Positions 40,180-48,808 of a stretch of DNA of 50,204 nt are shown here, one piece after another. The first letter of the stretch is position 1. Every line of letters begins with the position of its first letter. The DNA comes from an uncultured Anaerolineales bacterium (GTDB taxonomy: Bacteria > Chloroflexota > Anaerolineae > Anaerolineales > UBA4823). The position numbers and the translations under genes were made by a program. Location of the stretch: contig CAIQJJ010000492.1 in NCBI GenBank assembly GCA_903872065.1, positions 1 to 50,204 of the forward strand, written 5' to 3'. Under the pieces are notes generated by a model. The model saw only the letters and a program-made list of their open reading frames with translations, made no database searches and was not told the DNA's origin.

Positions 40180-41892
40180 ATGTTTCTCCCTACAACGGCT
40201 GAAGAATTGAAGGCTCTCGGCTGGGCGGCGCTGGATGTGATCATTATTACTGGCGACAGCTATATTGACAGCCCCTATATCGGCGCGGCGGTGATCGGCA
40301 AGACGCTGCACGCCGCCGGCTACCGCGTGGGGATCATCGCCCAGCCGACGAGCGAGGAGATCGCCCGCCTGGGGGAACCGCGCCTGTTTTGGGGCGTCAC
40401 CGGCGGCAGCGTGGACAGCATGGTGGCGAACTATACCGCCGCCAGGAAGAAGCGCAAACAGGATGACTATACGCCGGGCGGAGTTAATGACCGCCGCCCG
40501 GATCGGGCGGTGATCGTCTACGCCAATTGGATCCGCCGCAGCTTCAAAAACACCGTTCCGATTGTGTTGGGAGGGATCGAGGCCAGCCTGCGACGCGTGG
40601 CGCATTACGATTATTGGGATGATAAGCTGCGCGGTTCAGTGCTGTTTGACGCCAAAGCCGACTACCTGGTGTATGGCATGGGCGAGCGCACCGCGCTGGA
40701 ACTGGCCCGCCGGCTGCGCGCCGCGGCCGACTCGCTGGAACAGCCGGTGGAGGCGGCAAATGACCCCCAGCGAACGCCGGGCGTCTGCTTGATCGCCCGC
40801 CAGCCGCCGCCCGATTCCCTTCAACTGCCCTCGCTGGAAGAGGTACGCGCCGACAAGTCAGCTTTTATCCGCATGTTCCACACCTTTTACCAGAACAATG
40901 ACCCACTAACGGCTAAGGGCCTGGCGCAAAAGCATGGCGACCGCTGGCTGGTGCAAAACCCGCCGGCGGCCTATGAGACGCAAGCCGAACTGGACGCGAT
41001 TTATCAACTGGATTTCGAGCGCGCCCAACACCCCTATTACGAAAAGCAGGGCGCGGCGCGCGCCCTGGAGACGATCAAATTCTCCATCTCCACCCATCGC
41101 GGCTGCTATGGCGAGTGCAATTTCTGCGCCATCGCCGTCCACGAGGGGCGCACCATCCGCTGGCGCTCTGAGGCCTCCATCCTGCACGAGGCGGAACAGT
41201 TCACGCACACGCCGGGCTTCAAGGGGATTGTGCAAGATGTGGGTGGGCCGACCGCCAATATGTATGGCTATGAATGCAGCAAAAAGCTGCGCCGCGGCGT
41301 CTGCGAGCATAAACGCTGCACCTACCCCGGCGTCTGTCCGCTGGTCAAGCCTGACCATCAGCCGCAGATCAACCTGCTGCGCAAACTGCGGCGCATCCCT
41401 GGCATCCGCAAGGTCTTCGTCGCCTCCGGCATCCGCTATGACCTGCTGTTGGAGGATAAAGCCGTCGGCGACACTTACCTGCAAGAAGTGGTCAACCATC
41501 ATGTCTCCGGGCAGATGAAGGTCGCCCCGGAACACGTGGACGAGCGCGTCTTGCGCTTGATGGGCAAGCCCGGCGCGGACAGCCTGCTGGCCTTTAAGCA
41601 GCGCTTTGAGCAGTTGACGCGCGCCGCCGGCAAACCGCAGTTTTTGACCTATTATCTGATCGCGGCGCACCCCGGCTGCAGTGAGGCAGATATGGAGAAG
41701 GTCAAACGCTTCGCCGCCCAAAGGCTGCAAATCCAACCTGAGCAGGTGCAGATCTTCACCCCAACCCCCTCAACCTACTCCACATTGATGTACTACACCG
41801 AGCTCGACCCCTTCACGGGCGAGAAGCTGATGGTTGAAAAAGACCTGCGGCGCAAAACACGCCAAAAAGAGATCGTCACCGGCCAATCGTAA
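40180..41892 (+). CDS. ygiQ: YgiQ (UPF0313) family radical SAM protein
   Basis: [52 protein letters not shown]. Confidence 0.92.
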
Positions 41893-41985
41893 CGCATGAT
41901 CGGGCGGGGGACAAGAACATTTACACAAAAGTTAAAGGGGATATAAATATTTTTAAAGTCATAATTGATTTTATTGATAAATTGC

Positions 41986-42036
41986 TTGACTTAATTTAAT
42001 TATCTGCTATAATGATTATGAAACAACAAGCAGATA
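41986..42036 (+). promoter_or_regulatory. Promoter of the DUF2089 operon with flanking inverted repeat
   Basis: TTGACT (41986), 16-nt spacer with extended TG, TATAAT (42008), in an AT-rich tract; TATCTGCT (42001) and AGCAGATA (42029) are inverted repeats. Confidence 0.65.
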
Positions 42037-42067
42037 CTCAGTCTTACCAGTCGTAAGCCTTAACCCT

Positions 42068-42457
42068 ATGAACATTATCCCTAACAAATGTCCAATCTGC
42101 GGCGGCGAAGTGACCGTCACTCGCATCTACTGCCGTGAATGTGATACCACCATCGAAGGCCATTTCGCCGGCCACCCTTTTACGCACCTTAAACCCGAGC
42201 AGCTCGCTTTTGTGGAAACGTTTATCCGCTGCGAGGGCCGCATCAAAAGGATGGAAGAGGAACTCAATCTCTCCTATCCCACCATCCGCAAACAGCTTCA
42301 GGATGTCATCCGCGCCCTGGGATACGAACCGCCCAGCGAAGAGGCTGAGGCAGGCGCCATCACCGAAGAGCGCCGCAAGCGCATCCTGGAAGACCTTGAA
42401 AAAGGTCGCATTGACTACCAGCAGGCCATGCGCTTGCTGCAAGAAAGCGAGGCATAA
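42068..42457 (+). CDS. DUF2089 family protein (Zn-ribbon, HTH, SHOCT-like C-terminus); putative regulator
   Basis: CPICGG..CRECDTTIEG, EELNLSYPTIR, RILEDLEKGRIDYQQAMRLL. Confidence 0.88.
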   Translation: MNIIPNKCPICGGEVTVTRIYCRECDTTIEGHFAGHPFTHLKPEQLAFVETFIRCEGRIKRMEEELNLSYPTIRKQLQDVIRALGYEPPSEEAEAGAITEERRKRILEDLEKGRIDYQQAMRLLQESEA

Positions 42458-42459
42458 TC

Positions 42460-43836
42460 ATGGAAAAGCAATTTCTAACGACCGGGAACACGCCCACGAT
42501 CCGCGTCGAGGTTCTCGGCAATCTCAAGTTGAAAGGCTGGGACGAAGACCAGGTCGTGATCAAAAATTCCCAGGCCGAACACATCACCCTCGAACAGCGC
42601 GGCGAAGAAATCTTTGCCCGCTGCGAATCGGACTGCACTTTGCGCGTGCCACGCGGGGCCAATATTATCGCCCAGGCGCTCCATGGCAATGCAGTCATCA
42701 AAGGACTGGACGGCAAACTCGTCATCGAACGGGCGCACGGCGGGCTGCAACTGAAGGCTACCGGCCCGCTCCAAATCGGGATGGCGCAAGGCGATGTGAT
42801 GGCGAAAAACATTGCGGGCGATTTCGTTGCGCAGCAAATCCTCGGCAACCTGATGCTCAAAAACGTACAAGGCAGCGTCGCCATCCAAAACTCGGTGGAC
42901 GGCAACCTACAGCTTGATAACGTAGATGGCTCTGCTTCGGCCACTGTGCGCGGCAACGCCACCCTGCGCTTCGACCCGACGCCAGGCGCGAAATACAATA
43001 TCTCGGCAGATGGCAACCTTTTCCTGCGCATGCCAGCGGATGCCAGCGCCACCCTCCAGGTCAAAGCTGATGGGCAGTTGATGATTAACCTGGGCGATCT
43101 GCAAGTCAACCAGCACAGCCGCAGCCCTTACCAGGCCACCTTAGGCGATGGCGATGCGGAAGTTGTCCTTTCTGCTCGCGGGAATGCCGTGGTTTCGGGC
43201 CAGGCGCCGGATTGGGAAATGGGCGATTTCGGCGCCGAGGTCGGCAGTGAGTTTGGCGATGAAGTGGGCAACGCAGTGAGCGAGACGGCGGAAAGGATCG
43301 CCACCGAAGTCAGCAGCCAGATCGAAGCCCAAATGGCGACCATCGAAGCGCAAATTGAGGCCCAGATGCAGCAGTTGACGGTTGGGTTGAGCTCGATTGG
43401 CCTGCCTGAAGAAGAGCGCCGGCGGGTGGAAGAGCGCGCCCGCGCCGCCAGTGAACGCGCTGCGGCCCGCGCCCAGGAAAAAGTGCGCCTGGCGCAGGAG
43501 AAACTGGAACGAAAAATGGCCGCCGCCCAGCGCCGCGCCGAAGAGCGCCAGCGCGAGGCCGACCGCCAGGGTCGCCGCGGGTGGAATTTTACCTGGTCAA
43601 CGCCCCCCACCCCTCCTGTTCCGCCCATTCCACCGATTCCGCCTGTCCCCCCCGTTCCCCCGGCGCACGCCATGCCGCCACGCCCGCCAGCGCCGCCATT
43701 CCACGCCCCCGAAGCTCAGGCCAGCAGCGCGCCGGTCAGCGATGAAGAACGCCTGACCATCCTGCGCATGTTGGAGCAGAAGAAGATCACCCTGGATGAG
43801 GCTGAACAACTGTTGAACGCCCTCGAAGGGAAGTAA
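42460..43836 (+). CDS. DUF4097-like beta-solenoid protein with coiled coil and C-terminal SHOCT-like domain (YvlB/LiaX-like)
   Basis: Repeated GNL/GD beta strands, E/R/A coiled coil, Pro-rich linker, EERLTILRMLEQKKITLDEAEQLL. Confidence 0.78.
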   Translation: MEKQFLTTGNTPTIRVEVLGNLKLKGWDEDQVVIKNSQAEHITLEQRGEEIFARCESDCTLRVPRGANIIAQALHGNAVIKGLDGKLVIERAHGGLQLKATGPLQIGMAQGDVMAKNIAGDFVAQQILGNLMLKNVQGSVAIQNSVDGNLQLDNVDGSASATVRGNATLRFDPTPGAKYNISADGNLFLRMPADASATLQVKADGQLMINLGDLQVNQHSRSPYQATLGDGDAEVVLSARGNAVVSGQAPDWEMGDFGAEVGSEFGDEVGNAVSETAERIATEVSSQIEAQMATIEAQIEAQMQQLTVGLSSIGLPEEERRRVEERARAASERAAARAQEKVRLAQEKLERKMAAAQRRAEERQREADRQGRRGWNFTWSTPPTPPVPPIPPIPPVPPVPPAHAMPPRPPAPPFHAPEAQASSAPVSDEERLTILRMLEQKKITLDEAEQLLNALEGK

Positions 43837-43874
43837 AAAGCTGATTTTCTGTGAGCAGAAGAAAGCTCTCTCTT

Positions 43875-44633
43875 ATGTCTGACGAACGAGTACGCATCCT
43901 TGAAATGATCAACAGCGGTGTGATTACCGCCGAACAAGGCCTGGCGCTGATCAAGGCGATGGAAGAGGACGACTCTTCCCCGGCTGAGACAGTTGAAGCA
44001 GCGCAGCCGGCCAGCCCGATCTTGCCGGAGACGGTTGAACCCCCGGCGGCTGAACCAGCCAAAGCGCCAGAGGCGGGCGAGGCGCAGCCAGAAAGCCCCT
44101 CGCAGCCCGCCGCCGCGCCGGAGGAGGAAGTCTTTGCCCCTGAACCGGAAGACCCTCCCCAAGAAGCCGCTCCGCTGCCGACACACAGTGAGCCGCCAAG
44201 CCTGGCGCACTACCGCAGCTTTTGGCGCATCCCCGTGACCATTGGCCTCGTCATAACCATCCTGGCGGCCATCTTGATGTTCCTGGCCTACCAGGACAGT
44301 GAGATTGGCTTTTGGTTCGCTTGCACGTGGTTTCCCTTCCTACTCGGCGTCCTCATCCTGAGCTTAGGCTGGGCCAGTCATTACAACCCCTGGCTGCACC
44401 TGCGCATCCGGCAGAAGCCGGGGTCGCGCCCCGAGAAAATCTCGATCAGCTTCCCCCTGCCGGTTGGACTGGTTCATTGGGTCATGCCATTCTTCCGGGA
44501 CAAAATTCCCGCCAGAAACGGAGTTGACCCCGTCGAGATGATCGGCTTGCTCAAAAACGTTTCGCCAGACAAACCGCTGTATATTGAGGTTGATGAACCC
44601 GGCGGTGAACATGTGGAAATTTATATCGGATAG
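43875..44633 (+). CDS. SHOCT-like domain membrane protein (2 TM)
   Basis: DERVRILEMINSGVITAEQGLAL, P/E linker, two TMs, C-terminal GEHVEIYIG domain. Confidence 0.75.
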   Translation: MSDERVRILEMINSGVITAEQGLALIKAMEEDDSSPAETVEAAQPASPILPETVEPPAAEPAKAPEAGEAQPESPSQPAAAPEEEVFAPEPEDPPQEAAPLPTHSEPPSLAHYRSFWRIPVTIGLVITILAAILMFLAYQDSEIGFWFACTWFPFLLGVLILSLGWASHYNPWLHLRIRQKPGSRPEKISISFPLPVGLVHWVMPFFRDKIPARNGVDPVEMIGLLKNVSPDKPLYIEVDEPGGEHVEIYIG

Positions 44634-44651
44634 AAGGATACGGAGGTAACT

Positions 44652-45032
44652 ATGGTGACATCTGAAGAACGAATGCGAATCCTGCGCATGATCCAGGAAG
44701 GCAAAATCACCGCCGATGAAGGCGCCAAACTGTTAGCGGCGCTGCGCGAAAGCCGGAAAGAGGCGCGCGAAGTGGCCTCGATGAGCCGCGCCAACAAGAG
44801 CTGGCTGCGCGTGCGGGTGACAGATATGAAGAGCGGCCGGACGAAGGTCAGCGTGAACCTGCCGATGGGCCTGGTGGATGCTGGCATGCGCATTGGGGCG
44901 CAATATGCCCCGCAGCTGGGCGGGATTGATATCTCGCAGTTTATGGATGAGATCAAATCCGGCGCCCAGGGAAAAATCATTGATGTAATTGATGAAGAAG
45001 ACGGCGAACACGTAGAAATTTTTGTCGAGTAA
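44652..45032 (+). CDS. SHOCT-like domain protein
   Basis: EERMRILRMIQEGKITADEGAKLL, WLRVRVTD..VNLP, DEEDGEHVEIFVE; SD GGAGG. Confidence 0.8.
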   Translation: MVTSEERMRILRMIQEGKITADEGAKLLAALRESRKEAREVASMSRANKSWLRVRVTDMKSGRTKVSVNLPMGLVDAGMRIGAQYAPQLGGIDISQFMDEIKSGAQGKIIDVIDEEDGEHVEIFVE

Positions 45033-45060
45033 GGCTGGGATTTTAGCAATCCCGGTTTTT
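45033..45060 (+). terminator. Putative terminator or attenuator before the last SHOCT-like gene
   Basis: GGCTGGGATT-TTAGC-AATCCCGGTT-TTT. Confidence 0.5.
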
Positions 45061-45075
45061 AAGGAGTAAAAAGTC

Positions 45076-45564
45076 ATGATGCCCTCAGCAGAATCCCTCA
45101 AAATTTTGCAAATGATTGAGCAAGGTCAGATCACCGCCGAAGAAGGTGTGCGCCTGCTAACCGCCGCGCAAGCGGCCTCACCCAACAAGACCGTTGTCGC
45201 CGAAGCGCCGGCCCACGCGGAAACACCGGAGCAAACTCCGACGACGGAAGCGCCCCCGGCAGCGGAACAGGCGCCGGCCCCCGAGCATGCTTCGCCCTCC
45301 GCGCCCGTTCCGGCGCGTTCTTCAGGCGGAGGTTGGTTTCGCATTCGCGTCACCGACATGAAAACCAACCGCAGCAAAGTGACGGTCAACCTGCCGCTCA
45401 GCCTGATGGCGGCCGGCCTGAAGATCGGCGCCCACTACGCCCCCGAACTGAAGGACATGAACCTGGCGGAAGTTTTCAAAGAACTACGCGATACGCAGCC
45501 GGGCAAGATTGTGGATGTAATGGATGATGAAGACGGCGAGCATGTGGAGATTTTCGTCGAATAA
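45076..45564 (+). CDS. SHOCT-like domain protein, paralog of 44652..45032
   Basis: ESLKILQMIEQGQITAEEGVRLL, WFRIRVTDMK..VNLP, DDEDGEHVEIFVE; SD AAGGAG. Confidence 0.8.
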   Translation: MMPSAESLKILQMIEQGQITAEEGVRLLTAAQAASPNKTVVAEAPAHAETPEQTPTTEAPPAAEQAPAPEHASPSAPVPARSSGGGWFRIRVTDMKTNRSKVTVNLPLSLMAAGLKIGAHYAPELKDMNLAEVFKELRDTQPGKIVDVMDDEDGEHVEIFVE

Positions 45565-45658
45565 GCGCCAATCACTTTAGTGGTCAGTTTAGCAACCAGT
45601 TCATTGAACCAATTTGACCTGTCCTGAGTAATATTGTTGTATATTCTCCTTCATTGTG

Positions 45659-45692
45659 AAAGCAGTCTCAGGCCCGCGCCTGAGACTGCTTT
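45659..45692 (+). terminator. Rho-independent terminator
   Basis: AAAGCAGTCTCAGGC-CCGC-GCCTGAGACTGCTTT, 15-bp arms. Confidence 0.75.
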
Positions 45693-45708
45693 GCGTTATA
45701 CTTAAGCC

Positions 45709-47049
45709 ATGAACCTATCCCCCTCTTCCCCTTCCTCAACACGCCTCCCATCTGGGATGTTCGCCTTTCTCATCGTGTGGCTGGGCCAGACGATCTCCGT
45801 CTTAGCCACCAACATGACTGGTTTTGCCCTGACCATTTGGGCTTACCAGGAAACCGGCAGCGCCACCGCGCTAGGACTGATGCAAGTTTGCTTCATTACA
45901 CCCTTTTTGCTCATCTCGCCGATCGCCGGGGTGATGGTAGATCGGCAAAACCGTAAATTGATGATGATGATGAGCGACCTGGGGGCCGGCGCGGCGACCA
46001 TTGCCATCCTGGTGCTGCAAGCGACCGGGCATCTGCAAATCTGGCATTTGTACATCACCGCCATCGTCACTGGCACGTTCAACGCTTTTCAGTGGCCGGC
46101 GTTTTCCGCCGCCATCACCACCATGCTGCCGAAAGAGCAGTACACGCGCGCCAATGGCTTGATGTCGTTGATTGAGGCCGGGCCGGGCGTTTTTTCGCCC
46201 CTGCTCGCTGGCGCGCTGATGCCGGTGATCGGCTTTACCGGCATCTTGCTGATTGATGTCGCCACCTTCATCCTGGCGATCCTGGCGCTGCTGATTGTCT
46301 TTGTGCCGCAGCCGCAGCGCACTGCGGAGGGCATCAAAGCCGAAGGCAGCCTCCTCAAAGAAGCCGCCTATGGATTTCGCTACATCTTTGAGCGCCCCAG
46401 CCTGTTGGGATTGCAACTGGTCTTTCTGATGGGCAACCTGATGAGCGGTATTGCCGGCGTTGTCGTCGCGCCGATGATCCTGTCGCGCACCAATTTCAAC
46501 CAGCAGACTTACGGGATGGTGCAGTCTGTGATGGCGGCTGGCGCGGTGATGGGCGGCGTCTTGATCAGCGTTTGGGGAGGCACCAAACGCCGCGTGCATG
46601 GGGTGCTGTTGGGGTGGATGTTCAGCAGTTTGATTGGACAAACTCTGCTCGGCTTAGGACGCGACCTGCCGCTATGGCTGGCGGCGGCGTTCTTGGGCAC
46701 TCTATTCATCCCCTGGGTCAACAGTTCCAACCAGGCCATCTGGCAGGCCAAGGTCGCGCCTGATTTGCAGGGGCGCGTCTTCTCGGCGCGCCGCCTGATC
46801 GCCTGGATCACGCAGCCGATCGCGCCGCTGATCGGCGGGCCGCTGGCCGATTTCGTGCTGGAGCCAGCGATGCGCGAGGGCGGTTGGTTGGCTGGAACTT
46901 TTGGCTGGCTGGTGGGCGTCGGCCCAGGCTCAGGGATGGCGCTGGTGTTAATCTTCACCGGCCTGTGCGCAGCGTTGGTCGGAGTGGGAGGCTACGCCTT
47001 CCGCGCGGTGCGGGATGCAGAGAGCATCCTGCCCGATTACATTCCATGA
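45709..47049 (+). CDS. MFS transporter (DHA3/MefA-like)
   Basis: WLGQTIS, GVMVDRQNRK (motif A), QGRVFS; about 12 TMs. Confidence 0.9.
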   Translation: MNLSPSSPSSTRLPSGMFAFLIVWLGQTISVLATNMTGFALTIWAYQETGSATALGLMQVCFITPFLLISPIAGVMVDRQNRKLMMMMSDLGAGAATIAILVLQATGHLQIWHLYITAIVTGTFNAFQWPAFSAAITTMLPKEQYTRANGLMSLIEAGPGVFSPLLAGALMPVIGFTGILLIDVATFILAILALLIVFVPQPQRTAEGIKAEGSLLKEAAYGFRYIFERPSLLGLQLVFLMGNLMSGIAGVVVAPMILSRTNFNQQTYGMVQSVMAAGAVMGGVLISVWGGTKRRVHGVLLGWMFSSLIGQTLLGLGRDLPLWLAAAFLGTLFIPWVNSSNQAIWQAKVAPDLQGRVFSARRLIAWITQPIAPLIGGPLADFVLEPAMREGGWLAGTFGWLVGVGPGSGMALVLIFTGLCAALVGVGGYAFRAVRDAESILPDYIP

Positions 47050-47071
47050 TCCGATAACAATTGAGGTTGGT

Positions 47072-48808
47072 ATGCTCCCGCAAAAGAATCCTGTGAACCC
47101 TGACCGCTTGATTGTCATTCCATTGGATGATCGGATTGTCAATTATGAATGCCCGCAGCTCTTAGGAGAAGCCGGCGGGGTGGAAGTGCAAATGCCGCCC
47201 AAAGATTGGCTTGGCACTCCCTGGCGCACGGGACAGATGGAGAATATTTCCAACTGGCTGGCTGAGGCTGTCCAGGCCGGGGCGAGCGGGATCATCGTTG
47301 CGCTGGACACGCTGGGCTACGGCGGGCTGGTCAACTCGCGGCGCTCATCGGATACGGCGGAAGAGGTCATGGCGCGCCTGCAAATTTTGGGCGAGTTGAA
47401 AGCGCAGCGCCCGGCCCTGAGCATTTTGGCCTACAATATCCTGATGCGGATTAACCGCAGCAATGACGCTGAGGAAGAAAAACCTTACGTGGCGGTCTAT
47501 GGCAGCCGCCTGTTCGAGATGTCAGTCTGCGCTGACAAACAAAATATGGCGGTGGCCAGCCCCGAAGACCAGACCCGCCTGGCGGCGCTGCAAGCAGAAA
47601 TTCCGCCTGAGATCGTCGCCGACTACCTGGCAGGCCGGGCGCGCAATCATCAAGTCAACCGCGCCATGCTGGATTGGACAAAGGCCGGCGTGTTTGACTA
47701 TCTGATCATCGCCCAGGATGACACGGTAGATTACGGCTGGAATATCGCCGAGGCGCGCCGCCTGCGGCAAGAGGCGCGCGAGAAGCGCCTGGCCGCCAAA
47801 GTATCCGTCTACCCCGGCGCGGATGATATTGGCATGCTGCTGGTGGGACGCTTTCTCGCCAGCCGGCGCGGTTTTCAGCCGCGGATTTGGACGCGTTATA
47901 GCAGCGCCCGCCATGCCCAGGTGATCACCGACTACGAAGACCGGCCAATGGAAGAACTGGTCAAGGCCCATTTAGGGCCGTTGGGCGGCATCCTGGCCGA
48001 AAGCCCCGACCAGGCGGATATCTGGCTCTATCTCAACACGCCGGCGGAAATCCAGGGCAATGGGCCGGATCAATATGTGGTCTCGGTGGATGAGGCTTAC
48101 ATTCGCGCCCAGCCTCCCGCAGTGCAGCAGGCCTTTCGCAATTACCTGGCTTACCCCGGTCTGCAAGACACCCTGCGTGAGATGCACACGCCGCAGCGCA
48201 ACGGCGTCGAGTTCGCCCGCAGCCTGCAGCAGGCGCTGCAAAGCGGCAAGACCTGCGCCCTGGCAGATGTGGCTTTCGTCAATGCCAGCGATAAGGCGCT
48301 CGGCGACACTTTGTGCGAACTGACCGATATCGCCCAACTGGCGGCTTATGGGGGCTGGAACACCGCCGGCAATACCTTGGGAACGGTCATCGGGCAGGCG
48401 GTCATCCGCCATCTCCAACGCCTGTACGGCGCGACGCCGCAAATGCTGGCCGCCCACGCCCGTTTCCTCTTCCTGCGTTTTGTTGAGGACTACCTCTATC
48501 AAAGTCACTGGCGCACCAAATTCATGCTCGAAACCCTGCCGCAGATCGGCGCCAGGCCGACGACCGGCAAGCTTGAGCCAGAACACCTGCCGCAAGTGTT
48601 GGAACTGCTCGTCCAACAGTTGCGCGCCGCAGCCAACAGCCTGGCGCAAGAGGCCTTTGTGGGCAAAAGCATCGCCGCCGGAGAGACCGCCATCGTCCTG
48701 GAGGCGCTCAGGATTGACGGACTCTCCCTGCCGTGGGGACGCCTGTTCGACCTGACGCTGGACATCGGCTGTGAGTACCGCGTCCATACGCAAGAAGATC
48801 GCCAATGA
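47072..48808 (+). CDS. DUF4127 family protein
   Basis: IPLDDR, YGGLVNSR, QDD, YPGADD, ADVAFVN, YGGWNTAGNTLG motifs. Confidence 0.82.
   Translation: MLPQKNPVNPDRLIVIPLDDRIVNYECPQLLGEAGGVEVQMPPKDWLGTPWRTGQMENISNWLAEAVQAGASGIIVALDTLGYGGLVNSRRSSDTAEEVMARLQILGELKAQRPALSILAYNILMRINRSNDAEEEKPYVAVYGSRLFEMSVCADKQNMAVASPEDQTRLAALQAEIPPEIVADYLAGRARNHQVNRAMLDWTKAGVFDYLIIAQDDTVDYGWNIAEARRLRQEAREKRLAAKVSVYPGADDIGMLLVGRFLASRRGFQPRIWTRYSSARHAQVITDYEDRPMEELVKAHLGPLGGILAESPDQADIWLYLNTPAEIQGNGPDQYVVSVDEAYIRAQPPAVQQAFRNYLAYPGLQDTLREMHTPQRNGVEFARSLQQALQSGKTCALADVAFVNASDKALGDTLCELTDIAQLAAYGGWNTAGNTLGTVIGQAVIRHLQRLYGATPQMLAAHARFLFLRFVEDYLYQSHWRTKFMLETLPQIGARPTTGKLEPEHLPQVLELLVQQLRAAANSLAQEAFVGKSIAAGETAIVLEALRIDGLSLPWGRLFDLTLDIGCEYRVHTQEDRQ

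Follow-up and report, generated by a model that had tools for sequence, protein, structure and literature searches.

How might a bacterium convey a change at its membrane to transcription when the genes concerned encode neither a kinase nor a sigma factor? The question is raised by five same-strand open reading frames (ORFs), referred to as P1 to P5, on contig CAIQJJ010000492.1 of genome assembly GCA_903872065.1, from an uncultured bacterium of the Anaerolineales (Chloroflexota); the whole stretch analyzed, 50,204 nucleotides (nt) long, is called the window below. A sequence-only reading of this DNA had pointed out that all five products, among them a DUF2089 regulator and a beta-solenoid protein, share one SHOCT/YvlB-like helix pair, and had proposed that the pair serves as a docking code in an envelope-stress system. 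Our analysis finds this helix pair, Pfam family PF22746, on every product of the operon and nowhere else in the genome, together with a second, C-terminal domain common to P3, P4 and P5 (the C domain) and a gene cluster conserved among relatives. The system very probably represents the PspA-free Toastrack–DUF2089 context described by Ravi et al. 2024 (mSystems, PMC11237479), found here in a genome of the Anaerolineae. That a complex assembled by the shared module beneath the membrane controls the P1 regulator is a reading we favor tentatively, judging from domain and gene arrangement, as a real possibility that falls somewhat short of probable.

The five genes, with the parts of their products and the PF22746 match of each, are as follows:

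42068-42457, + strand: P1, DUF2089 regulator of 129 amino acids (aa); Zn-ribbon (residues 8-38), helix-turn-helix (HTH, 41-87), short linker and C-terminal SHOCT-like module (101-126; 25.1 bits in the protein scan, 28 bits in the six-frame search)
42460-43836, + strand: P2, Toastrack/DUF4097 protein of 458 aa; Toastrack beta-solenoid (about 14-248), charged coiled-coil-like region, proline-rich tether and C-terminal SHOCT-like module (429-458; 30.4 bits)
43851-44633, + strand: P3, membrane protein of 260 aa; N-terminal module (11-40; 33.2 bits), acidic and proline-rich tether of about 75 residues, two transmembrane (TM) helices and, right after TM2, the C domain
44652-45032, + strand: P4, small soluble protein of 126 aa; N-terminal module (5-36; 47.7 bits), disordered linker and C domain (49-126)
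45076-45564, + strand: P5, protein of 162 aa; N-terminal SHOCT-like module (8-30; 28.0 bits), Ala/Pro/Glu-rich linker and C domain

A helix pair confined to one operon

PF22746 (SHOCT-like_DUF2089-C; gathering cut-off, 27 bits), a module that Pfam calls after DUF2089, matched all five products in the Pfam protein scan, four of them over the cut-off, and in a six-frame search of the genome all five were over it. The six-frame search, covering 7,488,114 bases, returned exactly five matches at E ≤ 0.01, every one of them in the operon; the assembly (7.49 Mb in 927 contigs) is 96.8% complete. This five-fold co-occurrence is beyond chance. The proposal that one helix pair recurs in all the products, C-terminally in P1 and P2 and N-terminally in P3 to P5, is thus borne out by the family model, whereas the literal motif once used to describe it survives in part: P1 fits it loosely, and what the five have in common is PF22746. 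None of the operon modules matched canonical SHOCT (PF09851) at E ≤ 0.1.

The confinement extends to related genomes. Among 23 relatives, 91 of the 108 PF22746 matches fall in one cluster of at most 7 kb per genome, and 12 of the 23 have all their matches inside a single cluster. A same-genus genome (G002) has a second pair of PF22746 matches outside its main cluster, on ORFs of 390 and 139 aa (contig C2, 663621-663815), which may be a second, smaller system.

The module helices are amphipathic (hydrophobic moment 0.30-0.48), and the modules are neutral to acidic, their mean net charge being -3.6 to -3.9 in the orthologues of P1, P2 and P3 and about 0 in those of P4; such charges fit docking onto protein better than binding to anionic lipid. 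Each gene keeps its own flavor of the module across orthologues, RILEDLDQG..S.EEAMRLL in P1 and RMRILKMIQEGKITAEEGAKLL in P4.

The C domain of P3, P4 and P5

The second common domain had been overlooked in the sequence-only reading, as had the conserved MFS neighbor and the atypical fifth gene considered below. A domain alignment places it in the C-terminal 78 or so residues of P3, P4 and P5, carrying the conserved motifs W.R.R.. and LP..L close to its beginning and, at its end, acidic residues followed by GEHVEI; AlphaFold2 folds it as two strands, helices and two further strands. The AlphaFold2 model of P4 (pLDDT 79.1) comprises a helix pair (4-39), a disordered stretch (36-47) and the domain (51-125), and the C domain modeled alone reached pLDDT 83.1 and pTM 0.63. 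P4 is the best-conserved member of the operon, with 3930 relatives at E ≤ 0.001 in a protein search, and both the TM segments and the C domain of P3 are conserved among its orthologues. Given an N-terminal module and two TM segments, both ends of P3 should face the cytoplasm.

Comparison with solved structures gave little. For the whole P4 model, Foldseek found no match in the PDB at E ≤ 0.001 (best, 0.25), and a wide VIA-align search returned matches to the helix pair only, at Z of about 5; for the C domain alone, the best VIA match had Z 4.1, with none of 48,161 chains at Z ≥ 5, and the best Foldseek match had E 0.49. There is no convincing solved analogue of the C domain, which does not in itself prove the fold to be novel. 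A structure search of the ESM Atlas gave matches over P4 residues 48-126 with TM-scores of 0.64-0.79, the aligned part being labeled PF30712 (Pfam 38.1); this name for the C domain is a structural label of the Atlas, and the accession PF30712 was not found in the literature searched. In some Atlas clusters the fold forms the C-termini of XRE-type HTH regulators (TM-score 0.64-0.70). Unlike those single chains, the operon has its HTH and its C domains on separate proteins.

A profile of the C domain retrieved 1519 cluster representatives at E ≤ 0.001 from among 1.84 billion. Among the best 150 of them, 123 carry an N-terminal SHOCT-like module (73 soluble proteins and 50 with one to three TM segments), and the remaining 27 are mostly fragment-like. 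In one metagenome protein of 273 aa (P0121), a 2-TM segment with its C domain is linked to a SHOCT-like module with another C domain; to judge from its sequence, the chain amounts to the C-terminal half of P3 fused to P4. A search for longer fused forms of P4 gave three P3-like proteins only, none of them fused to a regulator or to Toastrack, which is weak evidence. A LysR-type HTH joined to a C domain (P0134) was also seen and treated as a possible chimera rather than as a fusion of the two domains, because it is a single metagenome protein and its junction lies inside an apparently truncated LysR effector domain.

The regulator and the Toastrack protein

P1 scores 47.0 bits with PF22747 (Zn-ribbon) and 75.2 bits with PF09862 (DUF2089 HTH), both above the cut-offs, and its Cys8, Cys11, Cys22 and Cys25 are invariant in 32 orthologues; it is the sole DUF2089-HTH match of the genome. 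P2 is likewise the sole Toastrack match (PF13349, Toastrack/DUF4097, 25.4 bits; cut-off, 22.9), and its middle region is conserved among orthologues. The Pfam scan agrees with the earlier identification of the solenoid protein and, in line with the signaling proposed there, found no kinase or sigma factor in the operon.

A sequence search of the PDB with the P1 profile and with P2 found nothing at E < 0.01. The best match, at E 0.04, was a weak likeness of P2 residues 254-372, the charged coiled-coil-like region, to the coiled coil of HflC (SPFH/band-7), which is probably compositional. Prediction of a P1–P4 complex, run with separate alignments and no controls, gave ipSAE values of 0.01 and 0.00, where the mark to reach was 0.32, and speaks neither for nor against a contact.

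Conservation of the gene cluster and the identity of the fifth gene

Conservation was assessed within the Chloroflexota, the best 80 related loci belonging to records titled Anaerolineae, Anaerolineales, Chloroflexia or Chloroflexota, plus one titled "uncultured bacterium". The genes proved to be co-conserved, as the proposal of the sequence-only reading demands, with a core order of regulator, Toastrack, 2-TM protein and small protein kept across the Anaerolineae. Upstream of P4, the regulator, Toastrack and TM/C genes stand in this order in at least 47 of the 73 P4-anchored loci with enough DNA on that side; the figure is too low, several loci being missed through the overlap rule or through split genes. 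Of 40 DUF2089-anchored loci, from many Chloroflexota families, at least 34 have either Toastrack or a protein made of a SHOCT-like module and a C domain (SH-C). In these 40 loci Toastrack follows the regulator in at least 26, SH-C in at least 17 and both in at least 9, with SH-C but not Toastrack in 8 by the same rule; the Zn-ribbon is present in 36 of the 40 sampled regulators and the module, at E ≤ 0.01, in 26. In an even draw of 201 Chloroflexota genomes the DUF2089 HTH as such occurs in 135, or in 133 of 199 once two unpublished genomes are set aside. Of the 64 loci with at least 3 kb downstream, 39 have an MFS orthologue as one of the two matched genes that come next.

The gene order varies among loci, and the cluster is therefore modular. 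In four loci (L039, L047, L050 and L058; Thermoflexales-like and others) an SH-C gene comes first, in the usual position of the regulator, and in three (L064, L069 and L073) the order is regulator, C-domain protein, Toastrack, SH-C.

The fifth gene departs from what relatives have. Of 72 loci, 33 have a second Toastrack (Toastrack-2) as the gene after the P4 orthologue and none has an SH-C gene there; in both same-genus genomes, G001 and G002, Toastrack-2 occupies this place, with MFS next. In a tree of C domains P5 falls among the genus-level P4 orthologues with support 100/97, on a branch of 0.81, long branches of this kind lowering the certainty of its placement. Because P5 groups with the P4 orthologues, it appears to be a lineage-specific, fast-evolving copy of P4 that has taken the place of Toastrack-2. 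All six Toastrack-2 proteins tested end with a weak PF22746 match (14.9-23.9 bits); the rule that every product carries the module therefore holds in the relatives too, more weakly. Stand-alone genes of about the length of P5, with module, linker and C domain, were seen in three genomes of the same family (L093, 6419-6907; L094, 6155-6622; L095, 6306-6761); there is no other cluster gene at these loci, and the genes form a branch separate from P5.

Promoter, candidate operators and transcription unit

The non-coding features around the operon, with the gene that follows it, are these:

41964-41978, + strand: direct repeat ATTGAT-N3-ATTGAT just 5' of the -35 box, candidate operator
41986-42013, + strand: sigma-70-type promoter TTGACT-16 nt-(TG)cTATAAT, with TG before the -10 box
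45031-45059, + strand: terminator- or attenuator-like hairpin with a run of five U (U5), between P4 and P5
45656-45694, + strand: strong hairpin, 92 nt past the P5 stop and 15 nt before the MFS ORF
45709-47049, + strand: MFS transporter (MFS_1/MFS_3; PF07690, 1.2e-30), conserved downstream neighbor

P1 is preceded by a 175-nt AT-rich gap. The near-consensus promoter reported for this tract is indeed there, agreeing at 11 of 12 positions, in DNA whose G+C content (0.40-0.46 over 41700-42149) contrasts with about 0.6 on the flanks. Of 64 related loci, 26 have a promoter with at least 10 of 12 positions ahead of the regulator gene. In many relatives the regulator gene is directly preceded not by a strong promoter but by a small conserved ORF (77-84 aa, with an end motif close to LG(D/E)xLIxxGxxLK), for example in L003 (3228-3464), L005 (3231-3467), L017 (3214-3447), L030 (3386-3619) and L002 (4003-4257); two ABC ATPase genes precede it in some relatives, and the window does not contain it.

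TATTGA/TCAATA-type words are enriched in 26 orthologous promoter regions, which were picked by promoter score: against expectations from dinucleotide shuffles, TATTGA was found in 19 of the 26 regions (expected 6.3), TATCAA in 18 (6.6) and ATCAAT in 19 (8.0), and six-base inverted repeats numbered 54, where 200 shuffles gave 26.5 +/- 6.8 and never more than 51. In the window, ATTGAT-N3-ATTGAT occurs in two copies, with 0 expected from 100 shuffles. One is the repeat next to the -35 box; the other (44979-44993, + strand) lies 83 nt before P5, within the P4 codons for a conserved IDVID, and could be due to the codons themselves or act as a regulatory site inside the gene. In addition, a perfect 8-nt inverted repeat, TATCTGCT (42001-42008) and AGCAGATA (42029-42036), flanks the -10 box and the likely transcription start. 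We regard the AT-rich repeats at the promoter as candidate operators for P1.

The gaps between successive genes from P1 to P5 measure 2, 14, 18 and 43 nt. P4 and P5 have good ribosome-binding sites (for P4, GGAGG 7 nt 5' of the ATG), and the probable start of P3 is the ATG at 43875, given that the module comes first in its orthologues. The hairpin between P4 and P5 has a folding energy of -13.4 kcal/mol (z -3.0; 2 of 200 shuffles equally stable) and was left unflagged by the consensus scan. The hairpin past P5, at -28.2 kcal/mol (z -6.5; 0 of 200 shuffles equally stable) and with a partly U-rich tail, likely marks the end of the transcription unit. Rfam had no match at E ≤ 1 within 41700-45900. 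The description of the locus as a five-gene operon thus stands as far as same-strand ORFs and short gaps are concerned, but given the terminator-like hairpin before P5 the unit is better seen as four genes plus P5, the latter possibly dependent on read-through. The MFS gene is a possible regulated output of the operon.

Two neighbors complete the picture. Upstream of the AT-rich gap lies the gene of a YgiQ-type radical-SAM protein (40180-41892, + strand; Radical_SAM_N, 386 bits, Radical_SAM and a short DUF3362), and no gene of this type was seen upstream in the relatives inspected. Downstream, the ORF of a DUF4127 protein (47015-48808, + strand; 453.7 bits) shares its first 35 nt with the end of the MFS gene, suggesting translational coupling or a later true start.

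Relation to known systems

Enterococcal LiaX has a role in daptomycin sensing, and YvlB of B. subtilis in Lia activation. The operon resembles these two proteins in combining a SHOCT-like helix pair with a DUF4097/Toastrack solenoid, and the link that the sequence-only reading had drawn to YvlB finds support in PMC11237479, which states in its text that YvlB (CAB15517.1) carries SHOCT-like modules; there is also a weak likeness between the N-terminus of P3 and the start of NCBIfam LiaX (E 0.0033). Unlike YvlB and LiaX, in which the SHOCT-like part is N-terminal, P2 has its module at the C-terminus, past a coiled coil and a proline tether, and there are no PspC or LiaFSR genes linked in the operon. 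The NCBIfam cut-offs for LiaX (NF038025; P3, 16.2 bits against 350) and LiaG (NF049997; P2, 31.6 against 285) were not reached.

The closest description is that of the Toastrack–DUF2089 context. The main text of PMC11237479 divides DUF2089 into Zn-ribbon, HTH and SHOCT-like parts, ties it to Toastrack operons, with a four-gene Toastrack context across lineages, predicts membrane-to-transcription signaling and proposes alternatives to two-component signaling. Much of this recurs here: the three-part P1, the Toastrack gene on the same strand 2 nt after the P1 stop, the lack of PspA and the predicted signaling from membrane to transcription. The idea of envelope-stress signaling for Toastrack–DUF2089 is accordingly not new and was largely anticipated in that paper. 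There are also differences from its main text, in that the LiaI-LiaF-TM, B-box or PspC partners and the linked sigma factor are absent here, the partners being instead a module–2TM–C protein (SH-2TM-C) and SH-C proteins, whose C domain goes unnamed in the main-text passages; in addition, the module is on all five products, and a copy of P4 takes the place of a second Toastrack as fifth gene. What appears to be new, then, are SH-C and SH-2TM-C as core partners, the exclusivity of the module and the exchange of Toastrack-2 for a P4 copy, the first of which may be covered by the supplement of Ravi et al. 2024. Elsewhere, a DUF2089 protein is listed in a leaderless-bacteriocin cluster beside membrane and export genes (PMC7332713), and the literature text examined reports no function for DUF2089.

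With the Psp and Lia systems (PspABC-PspF; LiaIH-LiaFSR) the operon would share the logic of a membrane-proximal complex that holds or releases a transcription regulator, while differing from them in having no PspA/LiaH effector, PspF-type activator, histidine kinase or response regulator. With canonical SHOCT (PF09851; Eberhardt et al. 2013, PMC3581485) it shares a short, amphipathic, terminal two-helix module on many unrelated domains; the module here differs in matching PF22746, in being also N-terminal and in being confined to one operon. An anti-phage defense system was considered and rejected, PADLOC having given two weak rows (LmuB and TmtA; E 0.004; 14.4 and 12.8 bits) and none for P3 to P5.

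Possible mechanism and alternatives

The interpretation offered by the sequence-only reading is supported in part. The domain content, the exclusivity of the module, the gene order, its conservation and the promoter sequence are the observations from which our model sets out; the binding steps, the signal and the direction of regulation are what we infer from them. We propose that the two-helix module is a tag private to the system, which would gather all five products in one assembly beneath the membrane, its binding surface being perhaps another module, a C domain or the Toastrack sheet. P3 would be the membrane-coupled sensor and anchor, presenting its tethered module and its C domain on the cytoplasmic face, and P2 might form an oligomeric platform, with P4 and P5, in effect soluble versions of P3, as adaptors or competitors. 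P1 would then shuttle between the assembly and the AT-rich repeats at its own strong promoter, so that a change at the membrane would alter transcription of the operon, and perhaps of the neighboring MFS gene too, without a kinase or a sigma factor.

In a more specific version of this model, the tag mediates heterotypic docking in a split one-component regulator, of which P1 would supply the tagged HTH and P4 or P5 the tagged C domain, with P3 and a P2 lattice competing for the same contacts. The state of the membrane would set transcription through partner switching among the tagged proteins. On the domain arrangements available we consider this version rather improbable.

Several points weigh against our reading. 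The P1 module is below the Pfam cut-off in the protein scan (25.1 against 27 bits). The two hairpins, one between P4 and P5 and one before the MFS gene, weaken the picture of a single transcript with a single output. The loci compared are mutually related, and the counts and the motif enrichment overstate their independence, the 26 promoter regions having moreover been selected by the score of their promoters. No match to PspA (PF04012), PspC, a LiaF/LiaI-type partner or two-component genes was found in the operon with Pfam at E ≤ 0.1; the genome has its PspA matches on contigs C781 and C567 and its PspC matches on C670 and C729, and the link to envelope stress rests on context because these homologues lie on other contigs. 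As to the module, a size-exclusion test of one canonical SHOCT domain reported in PMC3581485 gave no self-oligomerization, its authors suggesting a non-self partner, and the text of PMC11237479 takes SHOCT-like modules, which it finds fused to many intracellular domains, as membrane anchors.

If this last proposal applies here, each hairpin would bind the inner leaflet alone and P1 would be controlled by its own lipid binding, the five proteins becoming concentrated at the membrane without any contact mediated by the module. The amphipathic helices of the module, with the hydrophobic moments given above, speak for such an anchor, and with the P3 C domain starting at the end of TM2 the system is membrane-proximal anyway. 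The net charge of the modules in the P1, P2 and P3 orthologues is, however, unfavorable for anionic bacterial lipid; P3, with its two TM helices, would need no anchor on a 75-residue tether; and a general lipid anchor is not expected to be limited to one operon per genome. We prefer the docking tag, because the module is confined to one operon and constantly paired with the C domain, and because the long flexible tethers, the P0121 fusion and the neutral-to-acidic charge point the same way, a further hint from fusions being the Atlas clusters in which the C-domain fold ends XRE-type HTH regulators; anchoring by lipid binding alone seems to us unlikely. HTH regulators are usually dimers, and the module might merely bring about homo-oligomerization of each protein, giving, for example, a dimeric regulator or a multimeric Toastrack, with any cross-talk left to the Toastrack, coiled-coil and C domains. 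The conserved flavor of the module in each gene would be in line with this, and SHOCT is found mostly on oligomerizing proteins according to the text of PMC3581485, the same source that found no self-oligomerization of one canonical SHOCT domain. Simple self-association would leave unexplained why a plain oligomerization module is absent elsewhere in a 7.5 Mb genome and why it is paired with the C domain in 123 of the 150 top representatives, and we hold it to be distinctly unlikely.

Lastly, the operon might not be a stress sensor, and might serve to regulate or scaffold the neighboring MFS transporter, for example by sensing a transported compound or gating its passage. The downstream MFS orthologue in 39 of 64 loci with enough flanking DNA, both same-genus genomes included, speaks for such a role, as does the place of DUF2089 beside membrane and export genes in the leaderless-bacteriocin clusters of PMC7332713. 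Against it, DUF2089 with Toastrack or SH-C is widespread in the 40 phylum-wide loci, where no shared MFS was seen, MFS being unscored there; the strong hairpin stands between P5 and the MFS ORF; and synteny among related Anaerolineae may be simply inherited. A role as transporter accessory is, in our estimate, very unlikely, and the assembly held together by a docking tag remains the account that we put forward.

Significance

Toastrack, DUF2089 and SHOCT-like proteins are widespread, and to our knowledge none has a tested mechanism. The operon offers a compact case, with one short module on every component and nowhere else in the genome, and the question of what a SHOCT-like module binds thereby becomes directly testable with five small proteins. 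The analysis also identifies SH-C proteins, soluble and 2-TM, as recurrent partners of the DUF2089 regulator. Should the split-regulator version of our model hold, signaling here would run through a private 30-residue tag and not through phosphorylation or sigma/anti-sigma pairs, and the two-gene sets of regulator and SH-C in Chloroflexota would be its minimal form. If it works by docking, the tag would open a further route by which the membrane reaches gene expression, one that needs neither kinase nor sigma factor; if it anchors to lipid, a published prediction would be confirmed. Either outcome would aid the annotation of thousands of hypothetical proteins.

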